64,000 nucleotides of DNA from contig JBHLJY010000010.1 in the NCBI GenBank assembly GCA_048887225.1, positions 23,838-87,837 on the forward strand, written 5' to 3'. The first letter of the stretch is position 1; every line of letters starts with the position of its first letter. Position numbers and translations under genes: made by a program. This stretch comes from Candidatus Hodarchaeota archaeon (GTDB taxonomy: Archaea; Asgardarchaeota; Lokiarchaeia; Sigyniarchaeales; SOKP01). Positions 39,112 to 45,804 of the stretch are shown here, piece by piece. The notes under the pieces are model-generated. The model ran no database searches. It was given only the letters and a program-made list of their open reading frames with translations, and was not told where the DNA came from.

Positions 39112-39963
39112 TTAAAGCTCTATAAAAGATCTTTTTCTTTTATTAAAAAATGTTAATTGATTATACCCAATTTCTTTAATTAATTCAATTATTTTTTTAA
39201 ATTGATAAGCAAGTTCATTAGGCTCATGTGCGTCAGATCCTAATAATATTGGGATATCTAACTCGTACATTTTTTTTATGATATCTTCACTTGGGTATTG
39301 TTCTTTGATATCTTTTCTAAATCCAGCAGTATTAATTTCTACAACTAGATCTCTCTTTTTAATGAGATCCAGCGCTATAGAAACTTCATCACAAATTAAT
39401 TTTTTTACATTCTCACTAGGAAATTTATTGAATTTTTTAGGTAAATCAAAATGACTAACAATATCTAAATCAAATTCCGTTGAATTTAGCATTTTTTGCA
39501 TAGTATGATAGTATTGCAAAAAAACATTATCAGGCCCTAAAGAATTATACTGTTTTAAAAATCTATTATCATCCATTCCCCAAGGGCCATCTTCTGAGAG
39601 TAATACATGTACAGATCCGAAAATATAATCTAAACGCGATTTAATTTTATTCAGATGAACATTAAGTCCGTCTAATTGGCCTTCTATAAAATCAATTTCA
39701 AATCCTATTTTTATATCAATTTTTTCATGGTACTTTTCTTTTAAATATTCGATTGTTGAGATATAAGTCTCAATTTCGTTCAAAATCATAGCATAATCCT
39801 CTATAGGAATTTCGTCGATTCCTATTAAATAATCATATGGAAAATGATCGCTCATGCCTATTAGGTCTAAATCCAACTCAACAGCTTTTTTAATATAATC
39901 CTCCAGTGATCCAATAGCATGATGACACATTGAATTATGAGTATGCCAATCTTGCAACTTCAT
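39112..39963 (-). CDS. Histidinol-phosphatase, PHP family (HisJ/HisK-like)
   Basis: DWHTH, SDH, GFEID, GSVH, SHFD, EINT, GSDAH. Confidence 0.9.
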   Translation of the reverse strand: MKLQDWHTHNSMCHHAIGSLEDYIKKAVELDLDLIGMSDHFPYDYLIGIDEIPIEDYAMILNEIETYISTIEYLKEKYHEKIDIKIGFEIDFIEGQLDGLNVHLNKIKSRLDYIFGSVHVLLSEDGPWGMDDNRFLKQYNSLGPDNVFLQYYHTMQKMLNSTEFDLDIVSHFDLPKKFNKFPSENVKKLICDEVSIALDLIKKRDLVVEINTAGFRKDIKEQYPSEDIIKKMYELDIPILLGSDAHEPNELAYQFKKIIELIKEIGYNQLTFFNKRKRSFIEL

Positions 39964-40002
39964 TTTATTATTAAATTAAATTTATTAGAAAGATTAAATG
40001 AA

Positions 40003-40917
40003 TCAAATACTTTCTATTTTTCTTCTTTCTTCCTCTAATTTCCTCTCTCTCTTCCACTCTTTTCTTTCCTTATGTGTCATATGCTGATCATACCTTTTAA
40101 TATAAAGTTCTTCGTATTTTTTTCTTAAATCCTCTACATCTTCAATATGTCCTAGAACATCTTCAAGGCCATCTTCGAAAAATCGGTTTTTTTTGAATTT
40201 TTTTGCTGGGATGCCGAGATAAATCCAACCGGCTTCTAAATCCTGCCCCACAATAGTTACAGAATTAGCAGCTAGAACGCTATTTTTTCCTATGTGAGTA
40301 CCAGGCATAACAACGGCATGGGCTCCTATTCTAACATTATCTTCGATAATTGTTTTTCGTATTATTAATAGATTACCTACAATAACAGCAGATTGAACAA
40401 TGCTTCCTTGCCCTACAACAACATTTTTTCCGAATTCAATGAATTCGCAGTCTACCCAACCTTCAAAAAGAGAATTAGAAAATTTGGTTCTCACACCGAA
40501 TAATTTAAAAGCAATATTGTCTAAAAAAGGAAATGGAAATTTATGTGCAAGCCAGATCGGCCATCTCTTAATAGTATTACGCATACTCCAATAACGATAA
40601 TCCTTATCTGAAGACTCTCTTATAAATACGCCCTCCTTTGGTTTGTGAATTGCATTAACGATTACAAGTAAAATTTTAGCAAAAATTAACGAGGTAAATA
40701 CTGCAGTAATATACATTAGAAAACAGAGAAGTGGAAAAAAAATGTAAAAATGAATTGGCCTTATTGGATCCCACAAAATTTGCCAATAATACCAAAATTC
40801 AAGTAAAACAGGGATCATCGATACCCATATAAGAAATATGTAAAAAACTAAATATCTTTTTTTTACTAAAATTGTTGGAGTAAATGGTCCTACTCTCATA
40901 GAAGTTGGAACTGACAT
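40003..40917 (-). CDS. Membrane-anchored hexapeptide (LbH) acyltransferase-like protein 3
   Basis: Two TM helices, PKEG, FGV, IEFGKNVVVGQG, IGKNSVL, GIPAK. Confidence 0.85.
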   Translation of the reverse strand: MSVPTSMRVGPFTPTILVKKRYLVFYIFLIWVSMIPVLLEFWYYWQILWDPIRPIHFYIFFPLLCFLMYITAVFTSLIFAKILLVIVNAIHKPKEGVFIRESSDKDYRYWSMRNTIKRWPIWLAHKFPFPFLDNIAFKLFGVRTKFSNSLFEGWVDCEFIEFGKNVVVGQGSIVQSAVIVGNLLIIRKTIIEDNVRIGAHAVVMPGTHIGKNSVLAANSVTIVGQDLEAGWIYLGIPAKKFKKNRFFEDGLEDVLGHIEDVEDLRKKYEELYIKRYDQHMTHKERKEWKRERKLEEERRKIESI

Positions 40918-40933
40918 TTTTCAAAATCTCTGG

Positions 40934-41857
40934 TTACAATTTAATTCTATCCTTTTTATCATTTTCAATACTTATTTTATGTTCTACTAATATTGCTCGT
41001 TCTTCATCAACACTTCTTCTTGTCAATTTCGTTTCTTCTGCGAGCTTATTTGGTTTTAATTTAATTGCTGGAATTCCAAAATAAATCCATTCTTGTTCTA
41101 AAAATTGGTTAAAAATTGTAGCAGAAATAGCACCTAGGAGTGAATCTCTTCCTGTAATAGTACCTGGTGAAACGCAAGCCATTCCCCCTACAACAGTATA
41201 ATCATCAAATATTACTCTTTTGATTATTAAATATTTTCCAACTACCATTGAGCTCATGACAACAGCACCTTGCCCTATCATAACATTTCGACCAAATTTA
41301 ATAAATTCAATGTCACACCATGAATCTTGGAGATGGCTTGAGAAATCCATTTTCACTCCAAACCATCGGAAAGCTAACGCATCCATCCATGGTAAAGGGC
41401 AATTTCTCATAAGCCACATCACTAACTTCTTTAATTCTGTTCGAAGACACCAAAATTCAAAATCTTTATCACCCTTCTGCGCTAGAAAAACACCTTCTCT
41501 TGGATTATGAAAAAGGTTTATTAAAATTAAAAATAATTTTGAGAAAAATATGCAACCATATATGAAAATAAATACCATAGAAAGTATAGCAATTGGTAAA
41601 ATGCAAATTGTAAAAATCCAAGGATACCAGTTCTCTGTTATTGGAGTTAATAGCCTAAAATATTCATAACTGTAGATTGCTACGAGTAAACCACTAAACC
41701 AAAAAATTGGGATATATATAAAGAGAAATTTTATACTAACTCTGCTAATAGCACTACTTGTTGTGAAGTCTAATGAATAATCATTTATATCATTATTTTC
41801 TAAATGAATTATTCCGTTCTTTTTTGTTTCAGTTGATTTTTTACTCGATTCACTCAT
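40934..41857 (-). CDS. Membrane-anchored hexapeptide (LbH) acyltransferase-like protein 2
   Basis: Two TM helices, PREG, FGVKM, IKFGRNVMIGQG, GIPA. Confidence 0.85.
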   Translation of the reverse strand: MSESSKKSTETKKNGIIHLENNDINDYSLDFTTSSAISRVSIKFLFIYIPIFWFSGLLVAIYSYEYFRLLTPITENWYPWIFTICILPIAILSMVFIFIYGCIFFSKLFLILINLFHNPREGVFLAQKGDKDFEFWCLRTELKKLVMWLMRNCPLPWMDALAFRWFGVKMDFSSHLQDSWCDIEFIKFGRNVMIGQGAVVMSSMVVGKYLIIKRVIFDDYTVVGGMACVSPGTITGRDSLLGAISATIFNQFLEQEWIYFGIPAIKLKPNKLAEETKLTRRSVDEERAILVEHKISIENDKKDRIKL

Positions 41858-42734
41858 AAGATATTTTCAAATCTTTATTTTTTTCTAAATCCTCTTCAGT
41901 AATTTTTAAAAAATCCATAATTTTCTTCTTAAAAATTTTACGGGCTGGAAGACCAAAATAATAATTATTTCCTTTTGTCGTTTGATTTTTCCCAAAAGAG
42001 CCAAGTGGTAAAATATAAGAATTATCTTTTAATTCGCAGCCTGGACCAACGATGTTGAAGGCAGTGCAAGTAACATTATTTCCTATCTTTATTTCAAAAT
42101 AAGGAATTCTCCCAAATATCCCCTCAACTGTATGAGAACATATTGCTGAGTTTACGCCTATATAACAGTTATCTCCAACATCAATAAATTTGTCAGCAAC
42201 TATTTCCTCCTCAATCGTAGTCCCTTTTCCTATTTTGTTTGATCCCACAAAATTAAAAAACCAATTAGCCAACCAGGGGAATAGACCTTTAGTAAACACA
42301 TTTTTACCATATTTAATTAAAAATGATCGAATATGGTAATAATTTAAGGTATCGGATGGAAAATTTCGAAGAATAATCCCATCCTGAGTTGGACATTTTC
42401 TTTCAGTAAATCTCCAGAGTATACGTGTTAATAACCCGATAAAAAATAAATGTAGAAGATAGCAACCAATAACAATTAAAGGCATCGAAATCAAAGCTAA
42501 TAAAGGTTTAAAGTTTGTGAAAAGAGAAGAAAAATTATTGTTCTCTAAATAAAAAGGTTTGAAAAATAGCAACACATATAACATAAAAATAATTCCAGGA
42601 AGGAAATACGATCCTAGATAAATAATGGCAAAAAAGGGTAAATAATAATGAAATTGTAGGTTGACCCCATGTTTTTCTTCCTCATCTTTTTTTTCCGATT
42701 TACTTGGTATTAAATTTTCATTTGATATAGCCAC
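41850..42734 (-). CDS. Membrane-anchored hexapeptide (LbH) acyltransferase-like protein 1
   Basis: Two TM helices, PTQDG, KIGKGT, VGDNCYIG, SH..EG, GLPAR. Confidence 0.85.
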   Translation of the reverse strand: MAISNENLIPSKSEKKDEEEKHGVNLQFHYYLPFFAIIYLGSYFLPGIIFMLYVLLFFKPFYLENNNFSSLFTNFKPLLALISMPLIVIGCYLLHLFFIGLLTRILWRFTERKCPTQDGIILRNFPSDTLNYYHIRSFLIKYGKNVFTKGLFPWLANWFFNFVGSNKIGKGTTIEEEIVADKFIDVGDNCYIGVNSAICSHTVEGIFGRIPYFEIKIGNNVTCTAFNIVGPGCELKDNSYILPLGSFGKNQTTKGNNYYFGLPARKIFKKKIMDFLKITEEDLEKNKDLKISYE

Positions 42735-42929: not shown

Positions 42930-43325
42930 ATGGATAATAAATGTAGAGATTGTGGAATTTGCTGTTTAAATACAAATATGATTCTTTCTGAGCAAGATAT
43001 TAGTTTAATTCTAAAAAATTATGCTTCAAATGATTTACGACGACAAGATTTTATATTTAGAAATAAAAAAGGTCATTTTCAATTAAAATGCATTGAAAAT
43101 CATTGTGTTTTTTTTGATACTATAACTAAAACATGTAAAATCTATTACGCTCGTCCTCAAGGATGTAGATTTTATCCTTTAATTTATGATTACGAAAAAA
43201 GAAAATGTATTTTTGATAAAGATTGTCCAAGAACTCATTTGTTTTATCAAAAAATCGATGAACCCGAAAGAGCGTGCGAAAAAATTAAGAAATTCATAAA
43301 GAAGCAATTGCTTATTAATATTTAA
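42930..43325 (+). CDS. YkgJ-family CxxCxxCC (Fe-S/Zn) protein
   Basis: CRDCGICC...C.FF...C.IY..RP.GCR.YP. Confidence 0.88.
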   Translation: MDNKCRDCGICCLNTNMILSEQDISLILKNYASNDLRRQDFIFRNKKGHFQLKCIENHCVFFDTITKTCKIYYARPQGCRFYPLIYDYEKRKCIFDKDCPRTHLFYQKIDEPERACEKIKKFIKKQLLINI

Positions 43326-43340
43326 AAAACAGATTTACTC

Positions 43341-44012
43341 CTAAGATTTTTTATATTGGTCCATATATCCTTTAATATATTTATAGACCTCCTCAGCAGG
43401 TTGAAAAATTCCAAAGTGTCCTTCACATAAAATTTCTGCTTTTAAATCCAATAACTTTTGCATTGATTTTTGATAATCGTCTAAATTAGAGCCAAAACTT
43501 TTCATAAAAGGACCATGGATGTCTTGCCCGAATAAAATTTTTGTTGTCTCTATTTCTACATACACAGCAATCGAGCCAGGGGTATGCCCTGGAGTGTGAA
43601 TACATTGAAATTCATAATCCCCTAGTTTTAAAATCTCAATTTCTTCAGTAAATCGTTTCTCCAATTTAATTGGTTTATAATCAACACCATACCAAGAGGC
43701 GGCCGTTTTACGGTCATATCCTTTTTGTTCAATAGCATCAGCATCTAAATCATGGGCGTAAAATTTAATCCTCTCATTGAGTGTAACTTTTAATTCATAA
43801 CAGATAGCAATATGATCTATATGGCAATGTGTTATAATGCAATGTTTTATATGTTTTGGATTTAATCCAAGGTTATTGATTTTTTTCACTATTAAATAGA
43901 GATTCATACCACAATCGATTAAAACAAGACCATCACTGCTATTCGTATCTACTAAATATACGGAACAGCCAGAATCTCCTAAGTGATATACATTTTTTAC
44001 TATTTTTTGCAT
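43341..44012 (-). CDS. MBL-fold hydrolase
   Basis: THCHIDH, TPGHTPG, GH. Confidence 0.9.
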   Translation of the reverse strand: MQKIVKNVYHLGDSGCSVYLVDTNSSDGLVLIDCGMNLYLIVKKINNLGLNPKHIKHCIITHCHIDHIAICYELKVTLNERIKFYAHDLDADAIEQKGYDRKTAASWYGVDYKPIKLEKRFTEEIEILKLGDYEFQCIHTPGHTPGSIAVYVEIETTKILFGQDIHGPFMKSFGSNLDDYQKSMQKLLDLKAEILCEGHFGIFQPAEEVYKYIKGYMDQYKKS

Positions 44013-44075: not shown

Positions 44076-44891
44076 TTAATCTCTATCCAAATAAACCTTC
44101 TTATATAATAAAATTGTAGAGACAAATGCGACTCCAGTTGAAAATAGAACATCAGAAGCGTAATGATCGCCCGTTACAATTCTTGAAATTCCTAAATATA
44201 AACCCCAGCTAATAACGAGGATTGTAATTATTATTCTTTTAGGGTTCTTCCATTTTCGTTCCTTAAATAATATCAATAATGGTAAAAACATCCAGCCCAT
44301 TGAAGTGTGACCTGAAGGAAAAGACACATTTCCTTCTAAGCCACTTCTCGGTCCGGGTGGTAAAAACCAAGGAGTGTAATTTGAATAATCAGACGATAAA
44401 TCATTGTATCGAACTCTTCCACACAAAATTTTTGTTATTTGGACAAAAATCAATGGATTTATAATTGCTAACATAATAATTACAATTGCGATTTTTTTGA
44501 AATTTCTCCAATCTCTATTATAGGTAAATATGAGAAATAATAAAATTGCAAAAGTAATTCCTCCTCCAAAAGCGATGAACCAGATATTACTAAAAATTAA
44601 TGCTAAAACTAAAATGATTACTCCAATCATTAGAATTATAAAAGCTGCGATTTTTTGCTTTTTCAATTCTTGTTGATAACTACCAATTATTATCGCGATG
44701 GCTATAGCAATTATTCCGTAACCAGGAGCTTCGCCATAATATTTTCCTATCTCTGCCCAACTTGATTCTCTATTCACAACAGCTTTAGATATTTCTAAAT
44801 CTGAAAATCCAAAAATAATTGCTAGGATTATCCAAACAATGATAATAGAAATTAATAGTTTAATTAACGATTCTTCAATATTCAATTCCAT
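44076..44891 (-). CDS. PAP2-family membrane phosphatase
   Basis: K.L.GR.R, SFPSGH, SRI..GDHY.SDV. Confidence 0.92.
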   Translation of the reverse strand: MELNIEESLIKLLISIIIVWIILAIIFGFSDLEISKAVVNRESSWAEIGKYYGEAPGYGIIAIAIAIIIGSYQQELKKQKIAAFIILMIGVIILVLALIFSNIWFIAFGGGITFAILLFLIFTYNRDWRNFKKIAIVIIMLAIINPLIFVQITKILCGRVRYNDLSSDYSNYTPWFLPPGPRSGLEGNVSFPSGHTSMGWMFLPLLILFKERKWKNPKRIIITILVISWGLYLGISRIVTGDHYASDVLFSTGVAFVSTILLYKKVYLDRD

Positions 44892-44985: not shown

Positions 44986-45804
44986 TTGATGAGAATGGAA
45001 GATAAAGAGAAAAAGCCTTTTTTAGAGAGACTTAAGAATTATATTAAGAATTTATTTGACTTTTCTCAGTATGATGTGAAAACATTAATTTATATGATTA
45101 TTTTTGTTTTTTTAATTGGTATATCACTGTTCTTATTGTACTATATTTTTTTTGTCGATAAGACTTTTTTATATAGAATTGTTGTAGAATGGTTTGTTAA
45201 TCCTATTTATGCATTGGCATTTTGGGGTATTCTCCTTTTCATTGCTATAATGGCTATTCAAGGATTATTGGTACCTATACCATCCGAAATTGTACTCTTA
45301 GCTGCGGGGATGATCTGGGGATATTTTATAGGGGGGATTATGGGAATTATTGGATCTATGGCCGCTGGATTATTGTGTTTTTATGTGAGTAGAAAGGGTG
45401 GCCGACCTTTGGCAGAGAAATTTGTCGGTAAGAGCGCGCTCGATATGGCAGATGCTTTAATTCAAAAATATGGAACGGGCGCGATCATAATAGCGAGATT
45501 TTTACCCTTTGTTGCGTTTGATCCTATCTCGTACGCAAGTGGATTAGTAGAAATGGATGCAAAAAAATATTCATTAGGAACTTTTATTGGTTCTATTCCC
45601 CGAGCGTTTTTTTATTCTTGGTTAGGTGCTAATTTAGGTATTCGACCTCCAATTGATTTTGATGAATTACCTTTGTCTGAAATCGAAGCACAAGCAGCTT
45701 TATTTAATAATATCTTACTACTTATTTTAGCTGTATTGGTTGTAATATTTATTGCTTATTATGCGTTTAGTAAATATTGGGAGAAAAAAACAAGAAATTT
45801 ATAA
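44986..45804 (+). CDS. TVP38/TMEM64 (DedA/VTT) membrane protein
   Basis: PIPSE, G...G, ARFLPFVAFD.ISYASG. Confidence 0.9.
   Translation: MMRMEDKEKKPFLERLKNYIKNLFDFSQYDVKTLIYMIIFVFLIGISLFLLYYIFFVDKTFLYRIVVEWFVNPIYALAFWGILLFIAIMAIQGLLVPIPSEIVLLAAGMIWGYFIGGIMGIIGSMAAGLLCFYVSRKGGRPLAEKFVGKSALDMADALIQKYGTGAIIIARFLPFVAFDPISYASGLVEMDAKKYSLGTFIGSIPRAFFYSWLGANLGIRPPIDFDELPLSEIEAQAALFNNILLLILAVLVVIFIAYYAFSKYWEKKTRNL

Follow-up and report, generated by a model that had tools for sequence, protein, structure and literature searches.

A three-subunit variant of the 2TM-LbH module of Pls/PosA synthetases in Loki-type Asgard archaea, most likely a single-site membrane acyltransferase

What do three adjacent archaeal genes make together when each of them encodes two transmembrane (TM) helices and a left-handed beta-helix (LbH) domain, and how do they relate to the membrane end of the poly-lysine-type synthetases? 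The genes, here called A, B and C, lie in a window of 64,000 nucleotides (contig C10, C10:23838-87837) of a 3.27-Mb, 98%-complete Asgard genome of the Loki type. In the Pls/PosA single-module nonribosomal peptide synthetases (NRPSs), whose members include epsilon-poly-L-lysine synthetase and delta-poly-L-ornithine synthetase, TM1-6 with C1-C2-C3 form a membrane 'polymerisation' domain (PMC10522769). This membrane end is the least understood part of poly-lysine-type synthetases; it has no solved structure, and the only cited model of it is a prediction (PMC10522769). The original prediction, made from the DNA letters alone, had read the triplet as an obligate membrane heterotrimer resembling a split Pls module. 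Here we find that the triplet encodes a conserved variant of the Pls/PosA 2TM-LbH module, undescribed so far and made of three subunits, and that the complex is most likely a single-site, acyl-coenzyme A (acyl-CoA)-dependent membrane acyltransferase. No publication on this Asgard triplet, and none on a Pls structure, was found in the literature searched.

B and C share 38% identity across 236 residues including the TM region (E 8e-61), A and C share 24% (E 5e-14), and A and B share 21% (E 3e-12); A, B and C are true paralogues over their full length, TM part included. Hydropathy analysis gave two TM helices in each protein, and the alignment shows a P..G motif after TM2 and a terminal G.PA motif common to all three. 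Paralogy scores, hydropathy and alignment thus agree with the layout that had been proposed from the letters (2 TM, P..G, helix, LbH, G.PA), and the spacings given with it were exact in the list of open reading frames (ORFs): A and B overlap by 8 nt (41850-41857), a gap of 16 nt separates B from C, and 39 nt lie between C and a PHP phosphatase gene. With the hexapeptide-repeat model PF00132 (Hexapep), C scores 42.3 bits, above the cut-off of 27, and A (20.3 bits) and B (12.4 bits) stay under it. Profile comparison together with an AlphaFold2 (AF2) model of a fused relative places an LbH domain in all three unit types, and A, B and C also match LbH enzymes of the PDB. In all three sequences, the N-terminal tails and the segments after TM2 are rich in Lys and Arg and the TM1-TM2 loops are poor in them; by the positive-inside rule, this distribution would place both protein ends and the LbH domain in the cytoplasm.

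One column of the alignment tells the three subunits apart, holding His in A (His201), Ser in B and Ala in C. In LbH acyltransferases, such a His serves as the general base at a subunit interface; homotrimeric LbH enzymes carry it in each subunit, and here it stands in A only. His201 and its neighbours (SH.VEG) are invariant in 13 A-type sequences at 31-73% identity. The same His is kept in all five single-unit proteins of other Asgard families and in all six bacterial single-unit relatives, which are presumably homotrimers. The Loki-type two-gene pairs have it in one of the two genes, the Asgard triplets in exactly one of three units (A), and the bacterial triple-unit proteins also in exactly one of three (unit 2). 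In the Pls-type domain it is found in unit 3 as H625, which is invariant in 34 sequences and is the only invariant His of the domain. His201 of A aligns with H625 and with the His of all single-unit relatives, and every unit cluster of this genome has exactly one His-bearing unit. The restriction of the His to one of three units suggests a 1:1:1 heterotrimer that has one active site; on the simplest reading of the alignments, each three-part ring contains a single such site, and the two degenerate subunits probably act as scaffold.

Conservation of the triplet, which had been left as a point for checking, was borne out, with the gene order kept in every related locus examined. A, B and C follow one another unbroken in all nine type-I loci read (L032, L033, L035-L037, L062-L065), where whole triplets are often tandemly duplicated in two or three copies. 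Natural fusions join the units in several ways. A and B are one polypeptide of 605-633 aa in L032, L033, L036, L037, L062, L064 and L065; a paralogous set composed of fused C-A and a separate B occurs at 12 loci in related genomes as well as on contig C9 of this genome; and a search for longer proteins found C-A fusions near the window's type. Triple C-A-B fusions of ~800 aa are represented by P0123 (805 aa), P0124 and P0133 (797 aa), and a second triple-fusion cluster came from the phmmer search. All fusions preserve the cyclic order A>B>C>A, as expected of a ring with three different neighbours. In a staggered alignment, C-A fusions were set on repeats 1-2 and A-B fusions on repeats 2-3; they fall into clean register with the triple fusion, and this alignment was used below. 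MAFFT alignments that misplaced C-A fusions or single units among the repeats were discarded. Two open frames of 962 and 780 aa were rejected as triple fusions, being stop-to-stop artefacts.

With the staggered alignment as input, the AF2 model of the natural C-A-B fusion P0123 reached a mean predicted local distance difference test score (pLDDT) of 82.9 and a predicted template modelling score (pTM) of 0.84, and pLDDT falls below 50 only in residues 1-18 and in the two inter-unit linkers. Each repeat is modelled as a long helix, a second long helix, a short strand, a ~20-residue helix, a ~9-residue helix and the beta-helix. Since a pTM of 0.84 was obtained on an 805-residue chain of three repeats, the repeats are confidently placed relative to each other, and the natural triple fusion is confidently predicted to fold as one compact body. 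Foldseek found no match to the whole architecture and no Pls structure in the PDB, where only soluble LbH acetyltransferases were matched; the nearest solved folds are LbH acyltransferases that depend on CoA or acyl carrier protein (ACP). The published AlphaFold description of PosA gives the same arrangement of TM hairpins, linker elements and LbH domains as the models here (PMC10522769). Collectively, the fixed order, the fusions, the single modelled body and the one His per three units support the proposed obligate 1:1:1 membrane heterotrimer with six TM helices and three LbH domains.

How far the likeness to Pls extends cannot be read from the terminal-domain model TIGR02353, a search with which had been suggested as a check. 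A, B and C score 24.5, 26.2 and 34.9 bits against a cut-off of 423.1, and the triple fusion P0123 scores 67.2 bits; weak matches of this kind, such as any LbH protein gives, appear in 14 of 14 control genomes, and the scores were therefore rejected as stand-alone evidence. Real Pls-type domains were obtained by a TIGR02353 search of Streptomycetales genomes, reached via an actinobacterial 16S primer, with full-score domains in 111 of 201 genomes. When A, B and C were compared with the Pls units by hhalign, eight of nine pairs gave 85-97% probability over 103-197 columns; the alignments reach the linker helices, and that of B with Pls unit 1 covers both TMs. For a Pls-type domain of Kitasatospora, AF2 (pLDDT 86.4, pTM 0.87) predicts the same element order three times over, so that the Asgard fusion and the Pls-type domain, compared by element order, share three units of TM-TM-strand-two helices-LbH. 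The link is strengthened by a bridging bacterial family (P0238/P0222, 680-683 aa, in Planctomycetales and Omnitrophota metagenome-assembled genomes, MAGs) of three units without carrier domain, because it scores on both sides, with 181-184 bits on TIGR02353 and hhalign probabilities of 97-99% over 160-190 columns with Asgard B and C. These profile comparisons indicate that the Asgard-Pls homology is real but distant and goes beyond the generic hexapeptide repeat.

While the resemblance to Pls stood in this form, the notion of a split Pls module did not. Profile scores within a system are 149 (A-B), 140 (A-C) and 441 (B-C) in Asgard, 106-173 among Pls units and 327-361 among the units of the bacterial triple proteins. 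Scores between systems are only 31-81, far under the 106-441 seen within the Asgard and Pls systems. A maximum-likelihood tree groups the Loki-type units in one clade (98/94) and the bacterial triple units in a second (97/96), which is sister to single-unit Methylophaga proteins, and leaves the Pls units outside a 97/93 group. On scores and tree together, the triplet is no fission product of a Pls gene. The separate clades imply that a single 2TM-LbH unit gave rise to the three-part design on at least three occasions, and the Asgard triplication is independent of those in bacteria and in Pls. Single-unit bacterial relatives of 222-233 aa occur in Methylophaga and in MAGs of Alphaproteobacteria, Gammaproteobacteria, Desulfobacterales and Oligoflexia. 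The result is a natural experiment, in which the singles keep the His in every copy and three independent triplications (Asgard, bacteria, Pls) each keep it in one unit.

Compared with Pls/PosA, the Asgard system has the same three units of TM hairpin, short strand, two helices and LbH, one His-bearing unit in three, and profile homology into the linker and TM parts. In contrast, Pls/PosA is one chain, whereas the Asgard units are encoded by three genes (as in the window) or two; Pls/PosA has adenylation (A) and thiolation (T) domains, which the Asgard genes lack in a genome without carrier protein or phosphopantetheinyl transferase (PPTase). The Asgard system is also archaeal, forms its own clade and is present as several paralogous sets per genome, unlike Pls/PosA. 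The bacterial triple and single proteins resemble the Asgard units in the P..G after TM2 and the absence of a carrier domain, and the triple form also has one His in three; however, the triple proteins are fused, have closely similar units (327-361), lie closer to TIGR02353 and stem from a separate triplication. Among solved structures, the best sequence and fold matches of the Asgard units are soluble LbH acyltransferases (galactoside/maltose O-acetyltransferases, CysE, LpxA/LpxD, PglD, DapH), which have the hexapeptide-repeat fold in common with them. These enzymes are built of three identical subunits with three active sites, in which a His is the general base and a thioester of CoA or ACP the donor; the three Asgard subunits, by contrast, differ from one another, carry a single such His between them and have an N-terminal TM hairpin with a linker module.

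The original prediction had pointed out that no adenylation or thiolation domain lies nearby. None is present in A, B or C or in their surroundings, and the 98%-complete genome contains no PP-binding (PF00550) and no ACPS (PF01648) gene, by models that ring in 10-11 of 14 control genomes. Of the stand-alone adenylation and carrier genes that were to be looked for, no PP-binding gene was found, and the genome has 18 acyl-CoA-ligase-type (AMP-binding) genes, of which one stands 3 kb away from a paralogous cluster. In Streptomycetales, all Pls-type domains examined are linked in cis to a carrier domain. Given the absence of carrier and PPTase from the genome, NRPS-like loading is unlikely and a CoA thioester is the most plausible donor; an acyl-CoA such as acetyl-CoA is more likely than NRPS-type polymerisation, which makes the aminoacyl or polymer system once suggested less likely. 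For the acceptor, the carrier-free bacterial relatives lie near RmlA-like nucleotidyltransferases, a dehydratase, a GT1-like glycosyltransferase, GMC oxidoreductases and a FeeM N-acyl-amino-acid synthase, and not near NRPS genes. Together with the Asgard gene neighbours described below, this context weakly favours a membrane lipid or a lipid-linked glycan over a peptide.

Two side observations belong to these relatives. Short Streptomycetales ORFs matching TIGR02353 were considered as carrier-free stand-alone forms and rejected, because they have an N-terminal PP-binding domain; they adjoin a gene for adenylation, thiolation and thioesterase (TE) domains (A-T-TE) and one for a TauD dioxygenase. 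In L225 (5262-12228), an 835-aa PP-binding and TIGR02353 protein is followed by an NRPS gene of the form C(partial)-A-T-TE, where C is the condensation domain, and by a TauD-family dioxygenase, and L224 has the same split Pls-type gene order. Bacterial 2TM-LbH triple, pair and single forms were seen in the glycan- and lipid-type contexts in L226 (7971-14604, a Planctomycetales MAG) and in L233 and L234 (Oligoflexia MAGs), and a 635-aa protein of L234 (72-1979) has extra N-terminal TM helices fused to one unit.

On these grounds we propose, with a probability of roughly 0.6, that a single membrane-anchored LbH acyltransferase, in the form of a pseudo-threefold ring, is assembled from A, B and C as non-identical subunits. 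Each subunit would bring a hairpin of two long TM helices into a membrane bundle of six, along with a short strand, two linker helices and an LbH domain in the cytoplasm, where the LbH domains would lie packed side by side as in ordinary LbH trimers. His201 of A would act as the general-base-type residue of a single active site, and B and C would serve as scaffold or bind substrate. The donor would be an acyl-CoA thioester, for instance acetyl-CoA, and the acceptor would be membrane-associated, that is, a lipid, a polyprenyl-linked glycan or a product handed to the membrane bundle. The paralogous sets within a genome may differ in donor or acceptor.

Several points weigh against this proposal. 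The modelled fusion belongs to a paralogous set and is 41% identical to C, for A, B and C of the window itself the 1:1:1 ratio is drawn from fused relatives, and the trimer-like packing of the LbH domains with His201 at an interface is suggested by the pTM and the element order of the model. Some A-B genes have no adjoining C (for example those followed by a DUF1295 gene), so the subunit stoichiometry may vary. The Asgard gene neighbourhoods are also weak guides; the CxxCxxCC protein, zinc-dependent alcohol dehydrogenase, DUF1295, PAP2 and DedA proteins that recur there (see below) hint at lipids.

Other explanations account for part of the evidence. The triplet could be a genuine Pls-like polymerase that makes amide (isopeptide) bonds, extrudes the polymer through the six-helix bundle and takes its monomer in trans from a non-phosphopantetheinyl source, such as aminoacyl-CoA, aminoacyl-tRNA or an acyl-phosphate made by one of the many ligases. 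Its element order, 6-TM/3-LbH layout, one-His-in-three design and profile homology into the TM and linker region are those of the Pls-type domain, and the 18 AMP-binding ligase genes, with one so close to a paralogous cluster, could supply the monomer. We nevertheless consider a polymerase improbable, given a genome devoid of PP-binding and PPTase genes, the carrier tied in cis to every Streptomycetales Pls-type domain examined, the separate clade of the Asgard units and the glycan- or lipid-type rather than peptide-type contexts of the carrier-free bacterial relatives. Another view, that A, B and C are three separate homotrimeric acyltransferases of different specificity, clustered by tandem duplication only, agrees with the homotrimeric state of ordinary LbH enzymes and, presumably, of the single-unit relatives in other Asgard families and bacteria. 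It would have to explain why the His found in every single-unit relative is missing from B and C, why the A-B-C order and the one-of-each composition persist through many duplications of whole triplets, why A-B, C-A and C-A-B fusions join different unit types in one chain, and why the triple fusion folds as one body in the model; this makes it very improbable.

The loss of the His in two of three units could also mean that the LbH ring is a structural or transport module, which anchors or gates the six-helix bundle. A precedent is the gamma-carbonic anhydrase (gamma-CA)/CA-like heterotrimer of plant and protist mitochondrial complex I, a membrane-attached LbH assembly in which some subunits lack catalytic residues; 7ar9, 7tgh, 8iuf and 9f5x, matched among solved structures, are presumably such complex I gamma-CA-like chains. 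That heterotrimer, however, has zinc-site chemistry, is part of a respiratory complex and has no Asgard-type TM hairpin per subunit, and its sequence match to the Asgard units is that of a generic LbH. Across the 13 orthologues the His of A and its SH.VEG neighbours are invariant, the three-His zinc site of gamma-carbonic anhydrases is not conserved, and the triplet does not adjoin respiratory-complex genes; a purely structural or transport role is thus the least probable of the explanations considered. A gamma-carbonic-anhydrase reading as such was rejected on the alignments, in which the zinc-site His triad is missing, A has one conserved LbH His and B and C have none.

Going further than the single-site acyltransferase itself, one may imagine a carrier-free three-subunit machine, evolved in Loki-type Asgard archaea independently of bacteria, that couples a cytoplasmic thioester to the modification or export of a membrane or surface molecule, an idea we hold to be rather unlikely at present. 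If it were true, this assembly of a catalytic LbH subunit and two scaffold ones on six bundled helices, encoded by 10-14 genes per genome, would represent a major unrecognised Asgard envelope activity, for example the acylation of archaeal lipids or dolichol-linked glycans, or the synthesis of an unknown polymer.

The family is small and lineage-restricted in the databases searched. A search of 5.8 billion clusters returned 735 homologues of C, of which the best 120 are 71-96% identical, every named one among these being from an Asgard MAG. phmmer with a fused family member found only 564 proteins at E<=1e-3 among 1.84 billion representatives. Among 121 genomes of the phylum, close orthologues are present in 15 of 15 genomes of the same family and in both genomes of the sister family, and only relatives of 25-29% identity occur in four further families. 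A protein atlas, in which a functional lead for the family was sought and none was found, gave only Asgard clusters and one Myxococcota cluster. Orthologues of A, B and C are 49-79% identical (49-73% for A), which indicates that all three genes are under purifying selection. The family is also expanded, with 10-14 genes per genome and, in this genome, 11 units at five places (Table 1). In a membrane enzyme family that is so lineage-restricted, highly conserved and strongly expanded, one may see a candidate for lipid or envelope chemistry peculiar to the prokaryotes most closely related to eukaryotes. The Asgard system presents the building block in its simplest separable form, with three genes, no carrier and one His, and the triplet may offer a tractable route to the workings of machines with six helices and three beta-helices.

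Table 1. Features of the triplet and its surroundings (positions in the window) and places of 2TM-LbH units in this genome (contigs).
Feature	Position	Strand	Description
Gene A	41850-42734	-	294 aa, GTG start; 2 TM, linker helices and LbH; sole His-bearing subunit, putatively catalytic
His201 codon of A	42132-42134	-	motif CSHTVEG; from translation and alignment
Gene B	40934-41857	-	307 aa; 2 TM, linker and LbH; Ser at the His column; fused to A in many relatives
Gene C	40003-40917	-	304 aa; 2 TM, linker and LbH; Ala at the His column; best conserved of the three
PHP gene	39112-39963	-	283 aa, PF02811; HisJ-type histidinol phosphatase
CxxCxxCC protein (PF03692)	42930-43325	+	131 aa, Pfam 45.1 bits; divergent from gene A; possible partner
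MBL-fold hydrolase	43341-44012	-	upstream of the triplet
PAP2 lipid-phosphate phosphatase	44076-44891	-	within 3 kb of the triplet
DedA/VTT-domain protein	44986-45804	+	within 3 kb of the triplet; directly beside gene A in the closest relative, L035
Units, place 1	C10		A-B-C of the window
Units, place 2	C30		A'-B', then a DUF1295 membrane protein
Units, place 3	C9		[C''-A''] fusion, then B''
Units, place 4	C1		two-gene pair
Units, place 5	C14		lone A-like gene

The separation of A and B into two genes is genuine. Contigs of two other studies run across the A/B junction, where in-frame deletions of 9 nt are their only differences, so the two-gene split is real in the lineage and an assembly error is ruled out as its cause. 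The deletions, found in related strains in the sediment metagenomes of these studies, lie at window positions 41840 and 41865 and flank the junction; length varies in the low-complexity stretches at the tail of A and the head of B, with the two-gene split retained. A 96-aa ORF antisense to B (41220-41510, + strand) is almost certainly spurious, because its apparent conservation in L032, L033 and L062 mirrors that of B on the opposite strand.

Of the neighbours, the PHP gene downstream had been pointed out in the original prediction. Its product scores 235 bits with NF005596 (cut-off 202) and 181.8 bits with TIGR01856 (cut-off 90.2), and no orthologue stands beside the triplet in nine related loci. 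Being HisJ-type and not conserved beside the triplet, it was rejected as a component of the system and looks like a housekeeping neighbour of histidine biosynthesis rather than a partner. On the other side, orthologues of the CxxCxxCC protein (46-53% identity) lie directly beside A or A-B in L032, L033, L036, L037 and L062, and the protein is often accompanied by a zinc-dependent alcohol dehydrogenase. The MBL-fold, PAP2 and DedA/VTT genes, also upstream of the triplet, are of membrane or lipid type.

The paralogous sets have neighbours of their own. After some A-B genes, C is replaced by a DUF1295 membrane protein (PF06966, steroid-reductase/ICMT-like). This cassette, with A and B separate or fused, is present in at least two genomes (C30:13765-16461; L033, 15478-18238; L065, 4909-7677), the DUF1295 neighbour in L065 being assigned by its size only. 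The lone His-bearing A-like unit on C14 (C14:53728-54546) stands tail-to-tail, with a 4-nt overlap, with an ADP-forming acetyl-CoA-synthetase-type gene (within C14:52247-54546), whose CoA_binding_2 and Succ_CoA_lig domains present a possible link to CoA thioesters. At a distance of 450 nt from A'-B' on C30 lies a gene for a class II (B12-dependent) ribonucleotide reductase with an HNH-endonuclease intein (C30:9585-13313, - strand).

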